From assembly GCA_043765375.1 (NCBI GenBank), contig JAYUJH010000008.1, positions 12,113-76,112 of the forward strand: a DNA stretch of 64,000 bases, written 5' to 3'. Each line of letters begins with the position of its first letter. Positions within the stretch are counted from its first letter, which is position 1. Shown here one piece after another: positions 3,279 to 62,929 of this stretch. This DNA is from Alphaproteobacteria bacterium (GTDB lineage Bacteria; Pseudomonadota; Alphaproteobacteria; Rickettsiales; UBA998). The notes under the pieces are model-generated. The model had not been told where the DNA came from. It did no database searches and worked only from the letters and a program-made list of their open reading frames with translations. The translations under genes were made by a program, and so were the position numbers.

Positions 3279-4049
3279 CTATGATTGCATCTTTTGCAAC
3301 AACTTAATGGAAATCGTCGCAACGTCCATTGCAGCGATAGAATTGGGAGATTTCTCCACGATTGGTGATTGCGCCCGAATCGCCTCCCTCACCTTGTTAT
3401 CCTTGCGCACAATTCCAAGCAATGGCGGAGTGAACTTGAGAAAGCTCTCGCACGCCTTGCTGATTGCCTCATAAGTGCGCTCACCTTCTTTTTGAGTAAT
3501 CGCTTGATTTACTACAATATTTACTTGCGTTTTTTGCAACCGAGTGGTGCATAATTTGATGAACGCATAAGCATCAGTTAGCGAAGTTGGTTCATCAGTC
3601 ACCACCACAATGCAGCATGATGCCATGGAGGCCATAAATTGCACATATTGCTCAATCCCCGCCCCTAAATCAATAATAATATAATCATATTGATTAGCTA
3701 GTTCAAGTAATTGTGCCTTAATGGTTAGTAATTTCTCTGATGATAAATTAGCAAGGCTGGTTGAACCAGAACGCCCCGCTATAATATCAAACCCAAGATG
3801 ATAATGCGTGATTATATCCTCAAGCAAACTGCCCCCACGCAACATTTGTGAAAGGTCACGTTGTGGGGTTAGCCCCAATTGCACATCAACATTTGCCAAA
3901 CCAATATCGCCATCAAACAATAATATTTTTCGCCCCGAACGAGCAAATAATTGTGACAAAGTGATGGATAGCCAAGTTTTCCCCACCCCTCCTTTGCCTG
4001 ATGCAACTGCGATAATATTGCGAGCCGATGATAAATCTACATGATTCAT
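3279..4049 (-). CDS. flhG: MinD/ParA-type ATPase FlhG (FleN/MotR-like flagellar number regulator)
   Basis: 256 aa with deviant Walker A VASGKGGVGKTW. Its start overlaps the flhF stop (ATGA at 4046-4049). Position directly after flhF. Confidence 0.75.
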   Translation of the reverse strand: MNHVDLSSARNIIAVASGKGGVGKTWLSITLSQLFARSGRKILLFDGDIGLANVDVQLGLTPQRDLSQMLRGGSLLEDIITHYHLGFDIIAGRSGSTSLANLSSEKLLTIKAQLLELANQYDYIIIDLGAGIEQYVQFMASMASCCIVVVTDEPTSLTDAYAFIKLCTTRLQKTQVNIVVNQAITQKEGERTYEAISKACESFLKFTPPLLGIVRKDNKVREAIRAQSPIVEKSPNSIAAMDVATISIKLLQKMQS

Positions 4050-5263
4050 GGTAGCAATCCCTCTATTTTAGGTTCTGGTGCTATTGAGTGACTGGAAAAG
4101 AATAATTTTGTGATAATTTCTGCATTGCACGGCTCAAATGCACCAATAATATTTTCTGTTCCCGTGATATTCACAATTTTCAGATGCGTTGCCCCTGCGG
4201 CGTTCAAAATGCTACCAAACCGCCTTGCGCAATCAATCCGTGTGATGATAATTTTTTCCACCCCGATAAACGAGAAAGCTCTAGCAATTTCATCAGCCTC
4301 CGCAGGGTCAGCCCCCGCCGCATAAACTAACACGGGTTCTAATTCAATCATATTTGCATATTCAGCAAGTTCTTTTAGCTTGCCAAAATCATAAGGATTT
4401 GCGCCTGCACTATCCACCAACACAGTTTCATTGAGTGGAATATCAGAAAGCATCGTCCGCAATTCATTACGACTTCTGGCAATTAGCAGATTTATCCCTA
4501 AAATATCCGTGATAGCAGAGAGTTGCTCCGCCCCGCCCGCCTTGTTGTTGTCAACCGTGATGACATGCACGATTTGACCATTTTTAACGCAATCAGCAGC
4601 GATTTTGGCAACGCTCAAAGTTTTGCCTGCACCTTGCGCTCCAATCAAAATATAGCGCAGGCAATCATCACCAACATTCAATTGGGAGAACACAAAACTT
4701 GCCTCAATTAATGCACCAAACCATTGCTTAATTGTGTTCTTATGGTGAGAAAATCTTTCTGCATCACCACCATTTAATTTGCTCATCTTATCGCATAAAT
4801 ATTCAACCATGGACTGATTAACACCATGCTCAACCAATATATTCTCAATAGATTTGGCAGTTTTAAGCGAAATATTTTGTAACTCTAGATTTTTATGCCC
4901 TAAAATGTTATGCCCTAAAATGTTATGCTCTAAACTCTTAGGTTCTAAACTGTGCCTAGGCATATTTTTCGTTGATAATTTATTAGGATTATTTAATTCA
5001 ACGGAATTATCAACATATGAATTATTTGAGTGCAAATTATTATGCGGAATATTATTGCTAACAACGCCACTCAAAGTTGCAAACCAATCATCGTAATTAT
5101 CATCATAATCAACATCTACAGGCTCAAAAGCTGCGGTCACCTGCACTGCTCCTAACGTATCAACTTGCTTGGTTGATATGATGATGGCACTATCGCCCAT
5201 AGTTTCACGAACCATTTTCATAGCTTGCTGCATATCATTTGCATCAAAAGTGCGCAATTTCAT
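4046..5263 (-). CDS. flhF: flagellar biosynthesis SRP-type GTPase FlhF
   Basis: 405 aa. N-terminus MKLRTF..MQQAMKMVRETMGDSAIIIS. G-domain motifs GAQGAGKTLSVAKIAA, VDSAG and ITRID. Contains a 15-nt tandem repeat (HNILGHNILGHKNLE). Confidence 0.8.
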   Translation of the reverse strand: MKLRTFDANDMQQAMKMVRETMGDSAIIISTKQVDTLGAVQVTAAFEPVDVDYDDNYDDWFATLSGVVSNNIPHNNLHSNNSYVDNSVELNNPNKLSTKNMPRHSLEPKSLEHNILGHNILGHKNLELQNISLKTAKSIENILVEHGVNQSMVEYLCDKMSKLNGGDAERFSHHKNTIKQWFGALIEASFVFSQLNVGDDCLRYILIGAQGAGKTLSVAKIAADCVKNGQIVHVITVDNNKAGGAEQLSAITDILGINLLIARSRNELRTMLSDIPLNETVLVDSAGANPYDFGKLKELAEYANMIELEPVLVYAAGADPAEADEIARAFSFIGVEKIIITRIDCARRFGSILNAAGATHLKIVNITGTENIIGAFEPCNAEIITKLFFSSHSIAPEPKIEGLLP

Positions 5264-5557: not shown

Positions 5558-7447
5558 ATGACCAAAACCCCATTGCTAGACACTATTGCAAGCCCGAATG
5601 AGTTGAAAAAGCTCAAGCCCGCACAATTGCCAAAATTAGCAGCTGAGTTGCGCCATGAATTAATTCAAACAGTGGCGCAAACGGGTGGACATCTGGGGGC
5701 AGGGCTTGGTGTGGTGGAGCTGACAATCGCCCTGCATTATGTTTATAACACACCGCATGATAAGCTGATATGGGACGTAGGGCATCAGGCTTACCCGCAC
5801 AAAATGCTCACAGGCAGACGGGCGCAAATGCACACAATAAGGCAGCTGAACGGGCTTTCAGGATTTTGCAAGCGTGATGAAAGTGAGTATGATGCGTTTG
5901 GTGCGGGACATAGTTCTACCTCCATTTCTGCCGCTCTTGGCATGGCAGTGGCGCGCGATTTGCAGCAACAAAAACATGAGGTGATTGCGGTGATTGGTGA
6001 TGGCGCAATGAGTGCAGGCATGGCTTATGAAGCAATTAATAATGCGGGCGCACTTAAATCACGCTTAACTATTATTCTCAATGATAATGATATGTCAATT
6101 GCTCCCGCCGTTGGTGCATTAAGTGGATATTTATCACGCTTAACATCTTCCAATGCTTATAATAATTTCCGTGATACGGCTAAGCATTTTGCCGAATATC
6201 TGCCCCCACCATTCCAAAGTGCGGCTCGCCGTGCTGAGCGTTATGCTCGTGGGGTGGGTATAGGAGGCGGTTCGTTATTTGAGGAATTAGGGCTATATTA
6301 TATCGGGCCAATTGATGGTCATCGCCTAGATTTGCTGGTGCCAATATTGGAACAAGTGCGCCAAACTCCGCATGATAAACCCGTGTTAATTCATATCGTC
6401 ACCGAAAAAGGGCGTGGCTTTGCCCCAGCCGCATCGGAGCTGGAGAAGTTTCACGGGGTGGGTAGTTTTGATGTGCTAACTGGCAAACAACATAAAGCAA
6501 TAGCCACCGCACTAAGTTATACAAACATATTTGCAAATGCGTTAATTGCACAAGCGCACCTTGATGAGAAAATTATTGCCATCACCGCTGCTATGCCATC
6601 AGGGACGGGGCTGGATAGGTTCGCAACAATTTTCCCCAAGCGTTGCTTTGATGTGGGAATAGCAGAACAACACGCCGTAACTTTCGCAGCGGGGCTAGCA
6701 GCTGAGGGTATGCGCCCATTCGTTGCGATTTATTCCACTTTTTTGCAACGAGCTTATGACCAAATTGTGCATGATGTGTGTATTCAAAACCTGCCCGTGC
6801 GCTTTGCGATTGATAGGGCGGGGCTAGTTGGAGCAGATGGTGCAACTCACGCTGGTATGTTTGATGTGGCGTATCTATGTTGTTTGCCGAATATGGTGGT
6901 GATGGCAGCGGGTGATGAGGCGGAATTGGTGCATATGGTGCATACGGCAAGCCTTCATGACGCATCACCAATTGCATTTCGCTATCCTCGGGGGGAAGGG
7001 TCTGGGGTTGAACTGCCTGAAACACCGCAAGCATTACCCATTGGAAAAGGGCGTATTATAGCGAAGCATGATGATGCCAAAATCGCTATCATCAATTTTG
7101 GTGCAAGGCTAAAATCATGCAAGCAAGCGATTAATGATTTAGCATTGCAAGGCGTGAATGTTAGCTTAGGCGATGCACGTTTTGCCAAACCACTTGATGA
7201 AGATCTGATTTTAGATTTTTTAGAAACACATGATTATGTGCTAACAATTGAAGAAGGGGTAAGCGGTGGTTTTGCCTCGCAAGTGCTGATGATGCTTGCA
7301 CAAAAAGCTCCGCATTTATTGCCAAAATTAAAGCCATTATATTTGCCCGATTATTTTCAACATCACGCTGATTGTGAAAAGTTATATGCTGATGCGGGCT
7401 TGGATAAAGCGGGAATTATCAAGTGTATAATGTCATTAACATCATAA
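5558..7447 (+). CDS. dxs: 1-deoxy-D-xylulose-5-phosphate synthase
   Basis: [20 protein letters not shown]-terminus and TPP-binding [18 protein letters not shown]...LNDNDMSI. The track ORF (from 5426) has 44 extra codons that are read-through of the REP (FVIPAHEA), so the start is set at ATG 5558. Confidence 0.95.
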
Positions 7448-13619: not shown

Positions 13620-13712
13620 AATAAAACTGGCGATGACCCAAAGGTTAGCCACTCTGGCTGCTTCCTTCCAGACCTGACCAACTAAGCAACGCCTCTGCCC
13701 ACCACCAGCAAA
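13620..13712 (-). ncRNA. ffs: signal recognition particle RNA (4.5S RNA)
   Basis: The minus strand reads GCUGGUGGUGGGCAGAGGCGUUGCUUAGUUGGUCAGGUCUGGAAGGAAGCAGCCAGAGUGGCUAACCUUUGGGUCAUCGCCAG. It contains the conserved domain IV motif GGUCAGGUC(U/C)GGAAGGAAGCAGCC. The 5' CUGGUGGUGGG pairs with the 3' CCCAUCGCCAG-type end, and a U-run follows. Confidence 0.8.
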
Positions 13713-57570: not shown

Positions 57571-58359
57571 ATGGATAGCATTCAAATAACCCAAGGTAAT
57601 TGCATCAAAATAATGCAAGAATTAATTGTTCAAAATACAACCGCCCAAAACACAATTGGTTGTGCAGATATGATTTTTGCTGACCCACCATATTTTCTTT
57701 CAAACGGAGGGATTTCATGCAAAAGTGGTAAGCAAGTAAGCGTTGATAAAGGCTCATGGGATAAGTCACTGGGAGCTGAACAAAACCATGAGTTTAACTT
57801 AGAATGGCTTTCTTTATGCCAACAATTATTAAAACCAAATGGAACAATTTGGGTTTCTGGCACTTCACATGTGATTTTTTCAATAGGTTATGCAATGCAA
57901 CAATTAGGCTTTAAGTTGCTAAATGATATTATATGGGAGAAGCCAAACCCACCTCCCAATCTCGCTTGTCGCAACTTCACGCACGCAACTGAAACTGTGT
58001 TATGGGCAGCAAAAAATGCAAAATCCAAACATTATTTTAATTATAGTTTAATGAAAAAATATAATGCCGATAAACAGATGAAATCCGTTTGGAGATTTAC
58101 TGCTCCCAAGCCATCAGAGAAAATATTTGGCAAGCACCCAACCCAAAAACCATTAGAGCTGCTAAGGCGTTGCATTGAGGCATCAACTAATGAGGGAGAT
58201 TTAATATTTGATCCGTTTATGGGAAGCGGAACAACAGGAGTTGCAGCCATTGAGTTGCAGCGTAAGTTTCATGGAACAGAACTAGAAATAGAGTTTATTA
58301 ATTTAGCAAAATTGCGCATAAATGATGCTTTTGAAAGAAAAAAAGGAATGATGCTGTGA
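57571..58359 (+). CDS. beta-class N6-adenine DNA methyltransferase (DpnA/M.MboI-B-like; CcrM/HinfI superfamily)
   Basis: Motif IV MIFADPPYFLSNGG precedes motif I FDPFMGSGTTGVAA (beta permutation). GTIWVSG, NDIIWEKPNPPPN, FTHATETVLWAAK and GKHPTQKP are present. Start set at ATG 57571, 1 nt after the tolA stop. Confidence 0.88.
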   Translation: MDSIQITQGNCIKIMQELIVQNTTAQNTIGCADMIFADPPYFLSNGGISCKSGKQVSVDKGSWDKSLGAEQNHEFNLEWLSLCQQLLKPNGTIWVSGTSHVIFSIGYAMQQLGFKLLNDIIWEKPNPPPNLACRNFTHATETVLWAAKNAKSKHYFNYSLMKKYNADKQMKSVWRFTAPKPSEKIFGKHPTQKPLELLRRCIEASTNEGDLIFDPFMGSGTTGVAAIELQRKFHGTELEIEFINLAKLRINDAFERKKGMML

Positions 58360-58790
58360 AAAAAGGAGGGGTTGGCGGTGCAAATACTAAAACAGGATTG
58401 GATTATGAAGAAAAAGTTTGTTTTCGCAAATTGTTATTATCCAGCCATGGTTATGAAATAAAACAAAATGAACAAGCTGGTGAAAGCGTATTCTATAATG
58501 ATAAATTAGTTGCTAGGTTGTTTTTAGAAAACAAAACATTATTTATTATTGAAATTAAGTTTCAAAATGGCACTGGTTCAACCGACGAAAAATTGCAAAC
58601 TTGTGATTTTAAGCGTAAGCAATATGTTAAATTAGTGCATCAAATCGGCTTGAAAGTTGAATATGTTTATGTGTTGAATGATTGGTTTAAGCAACTAAAA
58701 TATAAAGATGTGCTAGATTATATTCATCAAGTAGGTTGTCATTATAAGTTTAATGAATTACCACTAGCATGGCTAGGGTTACCTGAATAA
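58356..58790 (+). CDS. short PD-(D/E)xK-like ORF: candidate cognate restriction endonuclease, or a remnant of one
   Basis: 144 aa. The GTG start overlaps the methylase stop (GTGA). D48...E65-I-K67 in LFIIEIKFQNGTGSTDEKLQ resembles nuclease E-x-K cores; from memory it is reminiscent of the C-terminal core of DpnII/MboI-type enzymes. It is about half the size of those enzymes. Confidence 0.4.
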   Translation: MKKGGVGGANTKTGLDYEEKVCFRKLLLSSHGYEIKQNEQAGESVFYNDKLVARLFLENKTLFIIEIKFQNGTGSTDEKLQTCDFKRKQYVKLVHQIGLKVEYVYVLNDWFKQLKYKDVLDYIHQVGCHYKFNELPLAWLGLPE

Positions 58791-58817: not shown

Positions 58818-59381
58818 ATGGGAATATTACCAGATAAATGGATTAGGGAACAAGCGCAGCAACATGGCATGATTGAGCCATTTGTGGAGAAATTGCAACG
58901 TGAAAATGTCATTTCATACGGGCTTTCATCTTATGGTTATGATGCACGGGTTGCGGACGAGTTCAAGATATTCACCAATGTGGATTCCGCTATAGTTGAC
59001 CCGAAAAACTTCTCTGATGAAGGATTTGTTGACCGCAAAACTCCCATATGCACCATTCCCCCCAACAGCTTTGCGCTTGCCCGCACCGTGGAATATTTTC
59101 GCATTCCCCGTGATGTGCTGGTGATTTGTGTGGGTAAATCCACCTATGCAAGGTGCGGAATAATCGTTAATGTTACCCCACTTGAACCCGAATGGGAGGG
59201 GCATGTGACATTAGAGTTTTCCAACACAACTCCCTTGCCTGCCCGTATTTATGCAAATGAAGGGGCGTGTCAATTTTTGTTCCTAAAGGCACATGAGGAG
59301 TGCGAGGTTTCATATGGCGAACGAGCAGGAAAATACCAAGGGCAGCGGGGCGTTACGTTACCACGAATTGAAGGGAAATGA
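58818..59381 (+). CDS. dcd: dCTP deaminase
   Basis: [24 protein letters not shown], and [32 protein letters not shown]. Confidence 0.93.
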
Positions 59382-59469
59382 CCTTGCACTAATCGTATAT
59401 ATTCATTATATAATTGTAATAAATTGATTATATTTATGTTATAATTCAGTGAATAAAGAGGTTTTGGCT

Positions 59470-60099
59470 ATGACTGATGAAACTCAAATAAACACTCAAA
59501 CAATTAACACTTCGGAAATGCAAACATACCCAGCAAGCGCCGTTGTGAATTATATGTTGGATAACGCTGAAAAATATGGAGTTATTATTACTCCAATGAA
59601 ATTGCAAAAATTGCTATATTTCGCTAATGGCTGGTCGTGGGCTTTTTATAACAAACCCTTAATTAGCGACGAATGCCACGCATGGCAATATGGTCCAGTT
59701 TATCCTAGTGTTTATAACGCATATAAAAGTTTTGGCAGAAATGAAATTTTTAGCGAAAAAGGTAGTAAAATGCATGATTGTGGCAATACTATTGGCAATT
59801 TGGTGACAATAGTAAATTCATTTGATGATGTAGATGAAGGCTATTCGGAGCAAAAAACTTCCGATGATTATAGTTATCAAACAATTCAAGATGACGTTGC
59901 AAAAAATCTGATTATTAATATCTTGAAAAGCTATGGTAAAGCGGGAGGAGTTGCGCTTTCTGAGTGGACGCATGTTGGTTCATCTGATAACCCATGGTTA
60001 ATTGCTAGAAACAAAGGGGGTTCTAGTAGATTGAAAATTCAGGATAAAGACATCAAAGAATATTTTTCTCGCATAAAAAAACAAGGAACTTTAAAATAA
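59470..60099 (+). CDS. Panacea/DUF4065-domain protein (SocA/PanA-type antitoxin-like; GepA-like)
   Basis: ITPMKLQKLLYFANGWSWAFYNKPLISDECHAWQYGPVYPSVYNAYKSFG is the DUF4065 signature as I remember it. AAAGAGG is 7 nt upstream of ATG 59470 (the track starts at GTG 59449). Confidence 0.8.
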   Translation: MTDETQINTQTINTSEMQTYPASAVVNYMLDNAEKYGVIITPMKLQKLLYFANGWSWAFYNKPLISDECHAWQYGPVYPSVYNAYKSFGRNEIFSEKGSKMHDCGNTIGNLVTIVNSFDDVDEGYSEQKTSDDYSYQTIQDDVAKNLIINILKSYGKAGGVALSEWTHVGSSDNPWLIARNKGGSSRLKIQDKDIKEYFSRIKKQGTLK

Positions 60100-60677
60100 T
60101 GAATCAAATTGAAACTCCAGACGAATTGCCGACTAGCCCAACAATAAGTAATACGGAAGAAAAAGGCGAAATACCTGATCTTATTAAGAAAGAAGCTTAC
60201 AGAGTAATGTATAATAAATGGGTAGTATTTGTTATTTTGTGTATAATAACGGGAATTATTTTTTCGTTTCCTTGGATATACGAAAATTGCATTTTTCGCA
60301 TAGAAGGTTTGCAAAAACTGCAGACTATGACAGACGAAAAATTTTCCGCTTCATTTTTATTGAGCATATATTTATTTGGTAAAACCTTTGGGTTTTTATT
60401 TTTATTTTCTCTATTTATATATGTAGCTAAAATATTTGATAATCTGCGCCGCTTAGAGATTATATATCGTGACAAGGCATTGGCGTTCAGAAATATATCA
60501 ATATTATATTACGACGCACAAGTAGCAGAAGTTGAAAAATATTATGATTTTGTATTTGAGCCAACCTTGCAGCAAGCAGAAAAGCAAAAACCTATGGAAC
60601 AACGTAATAATCAGCATCTTGGTGATGCACTTGCATCATTGATAGAAAAAATAACCGAACTATTGAAGAAAAAATAA
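60099..60677 (+). CDS. uncharacterised 2-TM protein translationally coupled to the Panacea gene (candidate toxin/effector)
   Basis: TAATG stop/start overlap at 60097-60101. 192 aa. Helices VVFVILCIITGIIFSFPWIY and FLLSIYLFGKTFGFLFLFSLFIYVA, followed by an amphipathic helical tail (IFDNLRRLEIIYRDKALAFRN...). No enzymatic motif. Confidence 0.6.
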   Translation: MNQIETPDELPTSPTISNTEEKGEIPDLIKKEAYRVMYNKWVVFVILCIITGIIFSFPWIYENCIFRIEGLQKLQTMTDEKFSASFLLSIYLFGKTFGFLFLFSLFIYVAKIFDNLRRLEIIYRDKALAFRNISILYYDAQVAEVEKYYDFVFEPTLQQAEKQKPMEQRNNQHLGDALASLIEKITELLKKK

Positions 60678-60692
60678 CCACGGAAACTAATA

Positions 60693-62006
60693 ATGGATAA
60701 AATACGGATAATTGGGGGCAAACCCCTAAATGGTGAGATTCGCATAAGCGGGGCGAAAAATGCTGCACTGCCGCTGATGTGCGCTGCACTTCTGACTGAG
60801 GAAACTCTCACCCTTAGCAATATGCCATATCTCGCTGATATCGTCACCATGTCGCAATTATTGATGCAACACGGCATCAACTTCAACATGACTGATGCGC
60901 ACGAGATGCAACAATTTGGCGACATCACGTTAGGGCGCACCGTGATGCTTGATGGTGGCAACATCACCAGCTTCACCGCACCATATGAAATTGTGCGCAA
61001 AATGCGGGCTTCAGTGCTGGTGTTAGGGCCTTTGCTTGCTCGGTTCGGTGAGGCTCGGGTATCACTCCCAGGGGGGTGCGCTATTGGCACTCGTCCGATT
61101 GATTTGCATTTATCCGCCCTTGAGCAAATGGGCGCAGAAATTGAGCTTGAACAAGGTTATATCGTTGCAACCGCACCCAAGGGATTGCGGGGAGCTGATA
61201 TTATATTTGACAAAGTCTCCGTCGGTGCTACCGAAAATATCATGATGGCAGCAAGCCTTGCACATGGCACAACTCGGTTATATAACGCTGCATGTGAGCC
61301 TGAGATTGTTGACCTCGCCAAATGTTTGAATGCAATGGGGGCGGATATAAGCGGGGAAGGCACTTCCACCATCATCATTAACGGCAAACCAAAACTTCAC
61401 GCTGCTTTCCACAGCGTCATGGCGGATAGGATTGAAGCGGGAACATTTGTTGCCTGCGTTGCCCTCGCTGGTGGGGAAATATTGCTCAAAGCCGCCCCGA
61501 TTGAGGCAATGAAGCCGATGATTGAGATATGTCAAAAAGCGGGGGTGATTTTCACCGAGCATAAAGCGGGTGAGTTGCGAGTGAGAAGCAATCGCAAGCT
61601 ACAAGCTGTTGACATCACCACTGCTCCGCACCCTGCCTTCCCAACAGATATGCAAGCTCAATTAATGGCGATGATGACCATGGCAATAGGGGCGAATGGC
61701 GGGCATGGAACTTCCATCATCACTGAGACAATCTTTGAAAATCGCTTTATGCACGTCCCTGAATTGCTGCGCATGGGGGCGGATATCAGCCTCAAAGGGC
61801 AATCTGCGATTATCAAAGGGGTGGAGCGTCTGCATGGTGCGAATGTGATGGCAACAGATTTGCGAGCATCTGTTTCATTAGCGATTGCCGCACTCGCCAC
61901 GCCCGAGGAAACCGTGATACACCGCATTTATCATCTGGATCGTGGTTATGAATATCTGGAAGCAAAACTCTCAGCCTGCGGTGCGGATATTATGCGGGTG
62001 AAGTGA
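60693..62006 (+). CDS. murA: UDP-N-acetylglucosamine 1-carboxyvinyltransferase
   Basis: MDKIRIIGGKPLNGEIRISGAKNAALPLM and the active-site loop LPGGCAIGTRPIDLH. Confidence 0.97.
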   Translation: MDKIRIIGGKPLNGEIRISGAKNAALPLMCAALLTEETLTLSNMPYLADIVTMSQLLMQHGINFNMTDAHEMQQFGDITLGRTVMLDGGNITSFTAPYEIVRKMRASVLVLGPLLARFGEARVSLPGGCAIGTRPIDLHLSALEQMGAEIELEQGYIVATAPKGLRGADIIFDKVSVGATENIMMAASLAHGTTRLYNAACEPEIVDLAKCLNAMGADISGEGTSTIIINGKPKLHAAFHSVMADRIEAGTFVACVALAGGEILLKAAPIEAMKPMIEICQKAGVIFTEHKAGELRVRSNRKLQAVDITTAPHPAFPTDMQAQLMAMMTMAIGANGGHGTSIITETIFENRFMHVPELLRMGADISLKGQSAIIKGVERLHGANVMATDLRASVSLAIAALATPEETVIHRIYHLDRGYEYLEAKLSACGADIMRVK

Positions 62007-62929
62007 TGGATTTAGTCAAAAAAATTAAAAATAATAAATTGTTTCTAATTGGATTAACACTAACCTTTTTATGGCTTGCTATGTTTTGCGTGCTTTCAGG
62101 ATTAAATCCACTTGGAATATTAGATGGTAGATTTGATACATTTCATAAACTAGACTTAAATGCTAAGGGTGATTTTTTAGCAGGATTATTCGCCCCCGTT
62201 GCATTTTTATGGTTAATTATTGGCTCTTTTCAACAGCAACAAGAAATTACAAATCAACTTAAAGAAATGCAGTTGCAACGTGAAGAAACGAAGCAAATGG
62301 TGAAAGCACAAAACGAGCAAGCAAAATCAATTGAAGCCAACACCAACCACGCCGCTATGCAGACTTTTTTAATTTTAGAAAAATCATTGAATGAAGGATT
62401 GAAATGGAACTTGAAAAACTTTCTTATGAATTATCACTATTCTCTTCAAACAGAAAATTTAGTGGAAAAAAAAGATAATTTGTTTTTAATTATTAATGCA
62501 GTCAGAATTTCACTGAATGGAAAAACACAACAAGAAATACAAAATTCAAGAAATGACGTTATTCAAATAACCGAAAAACATATAGATTTTTATCAAACTT
62601 ATAAAAATAAAAAAATCGTTTCAAGTGCAATTAATTCATATTTCCAAACATTTGAAATGTTAATTGCGGAAGCTGAAAAAATTGATACGTTATTAAATGA
62701 ATATTACTATAATAAATTTATTGATGACAAAGCAGACGAACTTTCAAATACGGCATTAAGGAAAATGCTTTATCCTCCTGATAAAGCTAAGAAACATTAC
62801 AAATTTGAATATTTTCATAAAAACTCACCAGCGGGCGAACTCTATAATTTATTCAAAGATATTATTGCAGAAGTTGAAGAACATAACAAAGCAGTTGAAG
62901 AACATAACAAAGCAACCGCAACCACCTAA
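62006..62929 (+). CDS. 2-TM + coiled-coil protein, AbiC-like N-terminus (candidate abortive-infection effector)
   Basis: The ATG overlaps the murA stop (TGATG). TM1 is LFLIGLTLTFLWLAMFCVLSG, then KGDFLAGLFAPVAFLWLIIGSFQQQQEI, then about 230 aa that are K/E/N-rich and helical. A 21-nt tandem repeat (VEEHNKA x2) is at 62873-62914. Confidence 0.55.
   Translation: MDLVKKIKNNKLFLIGLTLTFLWLAMFCVLSGLNPLGILDGRFDTFHKLDLNAKGDFLAGLFAPVAFLWLIIGSFQQQQEITNQLKEMQLQREETKQMVKAQNEQAKSIEANTNHAAMQTFLILEKSLNEGLKWNLKNFLMNYHYSLQTENLVEKKDNLFLIINAVRISLNGKTQQEIQNSRNDVIQITEKHIDFYQTYKNKKIVSSAINSYFQTFEMLIAEAEKIDTLLNEYYYNKFIDDKADELSNTALRKMLYPPDKAKKHYKFEYFHKNSPAGELYNLFKDIIAEVEEHNKAVEEHNKATATT

Follow-up and report, generated by a model that had tools for sequence, protein, structure and literature searches.

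Two short genes lie on the forward strand between the housekeeping genes dcd and murA in a 64,000-nucleotide stretch of DNA from an uncultured alphaproteobacterium (contig JAYUJH010000008.1, positions 12,113 to 76,112; hereafter the window). The first, panA, encodes a protein of the Panacea (DUF4065) family, and the second, which we call X, encodes a predicted inner-membrane protein and is a candidate gene for a PanT toxin (Table 1). The two form a translationally coupled pair, as the last base of the panA stop codon (TAA, 60097-60099) is the first base of the X start codon, a 1-nt overlap that reads TAATG. The initial annotation of this locus had described a 209-residue open reading frame (ORF) with its own Shine-Dalgarno sequence that overlaps a 192-residue ORF in this manner, and the coordinates, the AAGAGG sequence and the shared base are all borne out. 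An AGG/GAG-type block is also found at the panA Shine-Dalgarno position in the orthologues, as seen in an alignment of the upstream spacers. The same two genes were returned by an independent gene call on a 487-kb public ENA contig (L013, 99.7% identity), which is identical to the window over the 6.6 kb compared, except for one 21-nt indel. Both genes are under purifying selection, the orthologues being 40-61% identical in amino acid sequence, with ratios of nonsynonymous to synonymous substitution rates (dN/dS) of 0.2-0.36. This selection, together with the existence of orthologues, indicates that panA and X are real functional genes and not chance ORFs.

Table 1. Features of the panA-X pair and its surroundings (nucleotide positions are those of the window; residue numbers are those of the protein named)
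Feature	Position	Strand	Remarks
panA	59470..60099	+	209 amino acids from ATG; standalone Panacea (DUF4065) protein
X, candidate PanT toxin	60099..60677	+	192 amino acids; predicted inner-membrane protein
Shine-Dalgarno AAGAGG of panA	59456..59461	+	Read from the sequence; 8 nt ahead of the ATG at 59470
dcd-PanA spacer	59384..59445	+	AT-rich, two promoter-like elements; spacer alignment of orthologous loci
Extended -10-like motif TGTTATAAT	59437-59445	+	In the dcd-PanA spacer
25-nt direct repeat	59391-59415 and 59422-59446		In the dcd-PanA spacer; repeat search of the window
Hypervariable insert of PanA	59750..59890		Residues ~95-140, between two conserved Panacea blocks
X, N-terminal tail	residues 1-24		Acidic, disordered
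X, amphipathic helix	residues 25-40
X, first transmembrane helix (TM1)	residues ~41-63
X, loop			~20 amino acids
X, second transmembrane helix (TM2)	residues ~84-110
X, juxtamembrane motif	residues 117-126		After TM2
X, cytoplasmic domain			Helical, ~65 amino acids; FEPTLxQAE and amphipathic C-terminal helix
dcd	58818..59381	+	Pfam DCD E 3.6e-32; upstream housekeeping neighbour
murA	60693..62006	+	Pfam EPSP_synthase E 2.1e-101; starts 15 nt past the X stop
Methyltransferase gene and 144-residue ORF	57613..58790		AT-rich pair, separated from the PanA pair by dcd
308-residue ORF	62003..62929		Overlaps the murA stop
Small bacterial signal recognition particle RNA	13621..13711	-	Rfam RF00169, 49.5 bits

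To the 5' side of the pair, the spacer that follows dcd carries promoter-like elements and a direct repeat. The ATG(T/C)TAT core of the -10-like element is invariant in the five orthologous spacers that were aligned, and the remainder of the element varies.

PanA matches the Pfam model PF13274 (SocA_Panacea) over residues 45-168 with an E-value of 9.5e-19 and a score of 68.8 bits, well over the gathering score of 25.7, as foreseen when the DUF4065/Panacea signature was first read from the sequence, and it also matches the phage Panacea family phrog_1281 (E 2.2e-38). No helix-turn-helix, DNA-binding or other added domain was detected by a Pfam scan or in the orthologue alignment, which shows just a T/Q-rich N-terminal tail of ~20 residues. 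The window PanA is a genuine standalone Panacea protein without a DNA-binding domain. In the orthologue alignment, the PanAs linked to X have a highly conserved core (TPMKLQKLLYFANGWS, LSxWTH..DNPW) and a hypervariable, indel-rich insert. The N-terminal 35 residues of X are as variable as this insert, and the two regions might touch and evolve together, or might just be loops under no constraint.

X shows two transmembrane (TM) peaks in a Kyte-Doolittle hydropathy profile (19-mer), at residues 42-60 and 92-110. Four K or R residues are found in the 15 positions before TM1 and four in the 15 positions after TM2, with a roughly neutral loop in between, so that by the positive-inside rule both termini should be cytoplasmic. 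X is a two-TM hairpin protein with both termini predicted in the cytoplasm. An AlphaFold2 model built from a 13-sequence alignment is all helical (helices 25-63, 68-77, 84-139, 143-152 and 156-191), with a mean predicted local distance difference test (pLDDT) of 71, values of 82-94 in the TM hairpin and below 50 in residues 1-21. The C-terminal helix, at residues 174-191, is strongly amphipathic (hydrophobic moment 2.09). Hydropathy, hydrophobic moment and model agree with the two hydrophobic helices and amphipathic tail originally noted in this ORF. The family alignment reveals an invariant lysine inside TM2 (K95) and, after I112, an invariant juxtamembrane motif, R117-R118-L119-x3-Y123-x-D125-K126 (RRL-x3-Y-x-DK); the F-E-P-T-L-x-Q-A-E motif and the amphipathic C-terminus are conserved, and the N-terminal ~35 residues and the periplasmic loop are variable. 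An oligomeric polar path, or an interaction with lipid headgroups, might be built on the invariant lysine in mid-membrane and the basic collar that comes after TM2.

X belongs to a rare family. The window protein has no match in Pfam (none at E<=0.1), NCBIfam, PADLOC or PHROGs, in keeping with the lack of a recognisable catalytic motif reported at the outset, and a Pfam scan of 13 family members returned scattered sub-threshold matches to unrelated membrane families only. Word-index searches with X alone or with the family profile recovered essentially the query and two known members, for which reason an exhaustive HMMER scan was needed; run over 1.84 billion representative proteins, it yielded 14 clusters at E<=1e-3. 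Among 185,579 GTDB species genomes a single one carries a member, a metagenome-assembled genome (MAG) labelled Rickettsiales bacterium, and the family was seen only in uncultured alphaproteobacterial MAGs and metagenomes. A scan of metagenomes with the X profile found no member. Remote-homology searches of this all-helical protein gave nothing significant: the family profile retrieved only noise from the PDB (fusion proteins of G-protein-coupled receptors and b562), and the best Foldseek matches of the model, to generic long-helix proteins, had E-values of 0.87 (PDB) and 0.066 (BFVD).

The arrangement of an N-helix, a TM hairpin and a helical tail had also called to mind the SLATT domains (Pfam SLATT_1 to SLATT_6), two-TM hairpins with flanking helices that are predicted to act on membranes in conflict systems and were reportedly described by Burroughs et al. 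in 2015. X could accordingly be a true SLATT-family pore effector, homologous to the two-TM effectors of nucleotide-signalling conflict systems and recruited to PanA. The weak BFVD Foldseek matches of the X model do include three proteins of giant viruses whose annotation reads SLATT or 'SMODS and SLOG-associating 2TM effector', but with E-values of 0.43-1.3 and TM-scores of 0.21-0.44 for a model of mean pLDDT 71 this likeness is not significant, and models with long helices draw unrelated helical proteins. None of the 13 family members matches a SLATT Pfam model at E<=5, and no SMODS, SLOG, cyclase or TIR gene adjoins the pair in any locus examined, where the neighbours are PanA and housekeeping genes. 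The SLATT comparison made initially is thus not sustained beyond gross architecture, and we regard a SLATT origin of X as extremely improbable.

X and PanA occur together. A Panacea gene lies directly upstream of X in all ten X-family loci whose sequence extends upstream of the X gene (the window, L001, L002 with L003 and L004, L005 with L006, L007 with L008, L009, L011, L012, L014 and L015). L015 is counted as paired because its 48-residue upstream fragment corresponds to the C-terminus of PanA, and L010, the sequence of which begins at the X gene, was left out of the count. The 1-nt stop/start overlap recurs in six of nine complete panA/X junctions, the remainder ranging from a 7-nt overlap to an 8-nt gap, and the adjacency spans at least six different genomic contexts. 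PanAs linked to X form their own clade, 34-62% identical among themselves, and the pairwise identities of PanA and X are correlated (Pearson r 0.69). The description of a candidate PanAT-type pair in the initial annotation is upheld by pairing in ten of ten loci, by coupling and by the antitoxin-then-toxin order, and the neighbourhood is conserved in relatives.

Outside this clade, PanA has other partners. X was found in none of 80 more distant PanA loci (L020-L099) from a metagenome scan with a PanA profile, at identities of up to 47% over the best local segment and up to 38% for near-full-length matches. In most of the 46 distant loci examined, PanA is accompanied by a small coupled partner of ~100-195 amino acids (e.g. 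L037 3500.., L026 1738.. and L063 3534..), whose N-terminal region is charged and whose one or two TM segments lie towards the C-terminal end. A pattern common to many of those with two TM segments is RKxYAxxIF...LSDxVLIAxIGxTTxNxxGxFxIVxxYLFP. The partners make up a large metagenomic family that resembles the T3/T12-type membrane PanTs as these have been described. No homology of X to the sister-clade partners was detected by hhalign, in which the X family and 18 such partners reached a probability of 1.8% over 15 aligned columns; only a short K/R-x-Y-A-like motif before the TM region aligns, and not significantly.

Characterized PanAT systems offer a close parallel. Membrane-targeting PanTs are known from E. 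coli STEC O31 (cluster T3), Bartonella apis (T12) and Helicobacter sp. (T4) (Kurata et al. 2022, PMC8832971); those validated as membrane-depolarising have a charged N-terminus and C-terminal TM helices, and the validated PanAs bind their toxins directly in a complex (PMC8832971). In the sampled rows of Dataset S1 of that study, the antitoxin gene precedes the toxin gene at distances from -26 to +22 (PMC8832971). For B. choladocola PanT(D11), a standalone Panacea protein neutralises the toxin and contacts its unstructured N-terminus and the short helix preceding its TM region (Ernits et al. 2023, PMC10440598). The pair described here shares with these systems a standalone Panacea antitoxin with no N-terminal domain, the order of the genes with a tiny overlap, and a small partner in which a charged or disordered N-terminus is followed by a short helix and then by TM helices, a layout also seen in PanT(D11). 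It also lies in the same PanA sequence neighbourhood, in which most related PanAs pair with small proteins with C-terminal TM segments. As a two-TM partner, X fits the class of membrane toxins validated for PanA, as initially supposed (PMC8832971).

X differs from these toxins in what follows the membrane hairpin. Its N-terminal part fits the known membrane PanT clusters, but TM2 ends near residue 110: unlike the T3, T12 and T4 proteins, with their C-terminal TM helices, X has a central hairpin followed by ~80 conserved cytoplasmic residues that include RRL-x3-Y-x-DK and FEPTLxQAE. For the T3, T12 and D11 toxins, X was compared with their published descriptions. In contrast to membrane-type PanATs, the X pair is also syntenic within housekeeping genes, is confined to uncultured alphaproteobacterial MAGs and metagenomes, and has a partner with no detectable homology to those of the sister clades. 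Dozens of unrelated toxins, some of them membrane disruptors, are known as partners of PanA, and one more such family comes as no surprise. The novelty lies in the rare X family itself, its C-terminal cytoplasmic domain, and its long vertical retention in a housekeeping gene string combined with rapid divergence.

Taken together, these observations make it probable, with a good measure of doubt, that the pair is a chromosomal toxin-antitoxin (TA) module of PanAT type (type II-like) with a previously undescribed family of membrane-acting toxins. By analogy with the validated systems, we infer that X would be toxic to the membrane and that PanA would neutralise it by direct binding. Transcription of the pair would start from the conserved promoter-like element that immediately precedes panA, and PanA would bind the cytoplasmic parts of X and hold it inactive. 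As in the B. choladocola PanA:PanT(D11) complex, contact would be made through the disordered N-terminal tail of X and the short helix before TM1, possibly joined by the conserved juxtamembrane and C-terminal domain. If PanA were lost, degraded or triggered, e.g. by phage infection, free X might oligomerise in the inner membrane, where Lys95 in mid-membrane and the RRL-x3-Y-x-DK collar could line or gate a polar path. Dissipation of the membrane potential would follow, with growth arrest or abortive infection as the outcome.

SocAB, the type VI TA system of Caulobacter crescentus, provides another way in which a Panacea protein might act on X. SocB is a soluble, clamp-binding protein. In a mechanism of this kind, PanA would be an adaptor delivering X to ClpXP or another protease, and X would become active once proteolysis stops. 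The two systems share a Panacea antitoxin, an alphaproteobacterial host and the form of a chromosomal two-gene module. SocA_antitoxin is the best NCBIfam match of PanA (E 6.1e-25), and PanA lacks a DNA-binding or accessory neutralisation domain. However, that match scores 87.9 bits, far below the equivalog cut-off of 190, and covers only the shared Panacea core at residues 23-96. X, for its part, is a predicted two-TM membrane protein, unrelated to SocB and with no NCBIfam match, and the direct complexes of validated PanAs with their toxins (PMC8832971) also speak against an adaptor role, which we consider very unlikely for this pair.

The pair differs from its surroundings in composition and in rate of evolution. 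Its GC content and third-position GC content are ~10-15 points under those of the flanking genes in nine of nine loci, including the one on a contig of 57% GC (L012); in the window, PanA has 34% GC and X 31%, vs 47% for dcd, 51% for murA and some 46-50% for the surrounding context. Comparison of the window with its relatives gives identities of 87-93% for dcd and 72-74% for murA, but 47-61% for PanA and 40-44% for X. In the closest comparison (L002 vs L005/L006), identities are 98% for dcd, 99% for rpsD, 89% for a neighbouring 182-residue ORF and 80% for yggS, with 62% for PanA and 43-48% for X; dN/dS is 0.32-0.36 in the pair and 0.02-0.15 in the flanks. The dN of the pair is 3-40 times that of the flanking genes. 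Its dS is somewhat above that of the flanks and of the same order, which argues against recent xenologous replacement. With its low GC and fast rate the pair resembles accessory genes, even though its position is stable.

The same neighbourhood is kept in relatives. Gene order is dcd-PanA-X-murA in L001, dcd-PanA-X-yggS in L002 and L005/L006, and amidotransferase-PanA-X-murA in L007, and in these orthologous loci murA or yggS directly adjoins the X gene or overlaps it. Presence/absence polymorphism of the pair was not established: relatives with a dcd at least 90% identical have this gene beside a tRNA synthetase gene, but the pair may adjoin murA in the same genomes (L007 and L016 represent one sample). 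More distant X loci are flanked by thyX and a D12-class methyltransferase gene, by malic enzyme and rpsT, by sulfatase and phosphoribosyltransferase genes, and by tauE. In the loci examined, all copies of the pair lack a flanking integrase, transposase or phage gene. Recent horizontal insertion is ruled out by the conserved synteny and by a dS of the same order as that of the flanks. We conclude that the pair is a long-resident, vertically inherited chromosomal module of the dcd-murA gene string that evolves much faster than its neighbours. The description of the pair as foreign to the dcd-murA context therefore stands in part: its GC content is atypical and it evolves fast, but it occupies the same position in diverged relatives, has no mobile genes around it, and X abuts or overlaps the essential gene downstream.

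These features bear on a further alternative, in which X would be a lineage-specific, non-toxic membrane protein with its Panacea partner as a cytoplasmic chaperone or regulator, the two having been domesticated in the dcd-murA operon, perhaps in an envelope role, rather than serving in addiction or defence. The position kept in four diverged relatives, the stop codon of X abutting or overlapping murA or yggS, and dN/dS below 0.4 in both genes would all suit such a role, as would the lack of flanking mobile-element genes and of phage, plasmid or viral-contig homologues of X. No terminator-like site was found on the forward strand between dcd, the pair and murA in a terminator scan, and this, with the 15-nt gap, makes it probable that murA is co-transcribed with X. 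Against a non-toxic role, the downstream neighbour varies (murA, yggS, a D12-class methyltransferase gene, rpsT), which leaves the pair with no consistent functional partner. X is, moreover, extremely rare and patchy, dN is 3-40 times that of the flanks with a persistently low GC, and every characterised Panacea pairing in the literature searched is TA-like (PMC8832971, PMC10440598). A non-toxic role is, on balance, rather unlikely.

Several of our observations also weigh against the toxin-antitoxin interpretation. Long syntenic retention, with overlap or abutment to the essential murA or yggS, is unusual for a TA module. Neither a tblastn search of phage and plasmid collections nor a scan of viral contigs found X. 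A generic sigma-70 promoter scan called no site in the dcd-PanA spacer, where the promoter remains putative. Toxicity and neutralisation are predicted from association, and in the PanAT study the nine validated pairs (Table 1 of that study) leave out several of the Panacea-adjacent candidates that had been cloned (plasmid list; PMC8832971). In an extension of the toxin-antitoxin interpretation, X might represent a new class of membrane effector, a central hairpin with an invariant buried lysine gated by its own ~80-residue cytoplasmic domain, with PanA as a trigger-sensing lid and not just a plug. The module would have been domesticated in the dcd-murA unit, its activity or read-through being tied to nucleotide and cell-wall precursor supply, and would serve as a switch for growth or defence that is inherited stably, in place of a mobile element causing addiction. 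This extension is decidedly unlikely.

If X is toxic and is neutralised by PanA, the Panacea network would gain a toxin family that surveys based on RefSeq have probably missed. The locus would also be a natural example of a TA-like pair that is kept vertically in a housekeeping string and yet outpaces the genes beside it, by several-fold to tens of times, in its evolution, useful for the question of why chromosomal TA modules persist. The invariant lysine of TM2 and the RRL-x3-Y-x-DK collar provide mutational handles on how a two-TM toxin acts and how a standalone Panacea protein silences it. Should X turn out not to be toxic, the pair would document something rare, a Panacea protein that does not serve as an antitoxin.

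The gene order around the pair in the window is tolQ-tolR-tolA-like, methyltransferase, 144-residue ORF, dcd, PanA, X, murA, 308-residue ORF and Mur ligase. The dcd of the window belongs to a cluster of at least 90% identity in which the members with names are titled 'MAG: Alphaproteobacteria bacterium'. A gene of the deoxythymidine triphosphate (dTTP) pathway lies directly upstream of the pair in two independent contexts, dcd in the lineage of the window and thyX in L011 (1424..2353; TIGR02170, E 1.9e-66). Such a neighbour was not seen in the other contexts of the pair, and coincidence is possible. The link to pyrimidine metabolism that these neighbours suggested was weakened, as the deaminase of L011 is TadA-like and the neighbour in L009 is a generic phosphoribosyltransferase.

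Upstream of dcd there is a second AT-rich pair of genes (GC 37% and 31%, with flanks at ~46-48%). Its first gene encodes a CcrM-like/type II N6/N4 DNA methyltransferase (Pfam N6_N4_Mtase, E 4e-62; PADLOC MTase_II, E 2e-92). The 144-residue ORF overlaps the stop codon of the methyltransferase gene by 4 nt and has a weak PD-(D/E)XK match (E 0.018), with no match in PDB or PHROGs. Together they are a candidate small type II restriction-modification system.

Downstream, the 308-residue ORF forms a third AT-rich accessory islet (GC 29%), encoding N-terminal hydrophobic segments and a long, coiled-coil-like region rich in K, E and N. It has no Pfam or PADLOC match, and matches phrog_9267, of unknown function, with an E-value of 1.2e-11. 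Near its C-terminal end, a 21-nt tandem repeat encoding VEEHNKA is present in two copies in the window (~62880..62926) and in three in L013 (~5800..5849). Just past murA, where the window has the 308-residue ORF, L007 carries a TA pair of VapBC/FitAB type, made up of a FitA-like ribbon-helix-helix protein and a PIN-domain protein (3478..4142), and the presence of different modules at this position suggests that the murA neighbourhood repeatedly collects accessory modules. No tRNA genes were found in the window, and its sole Rfam match is the small bacterial signal recognition particle RNA listed in Table 1.

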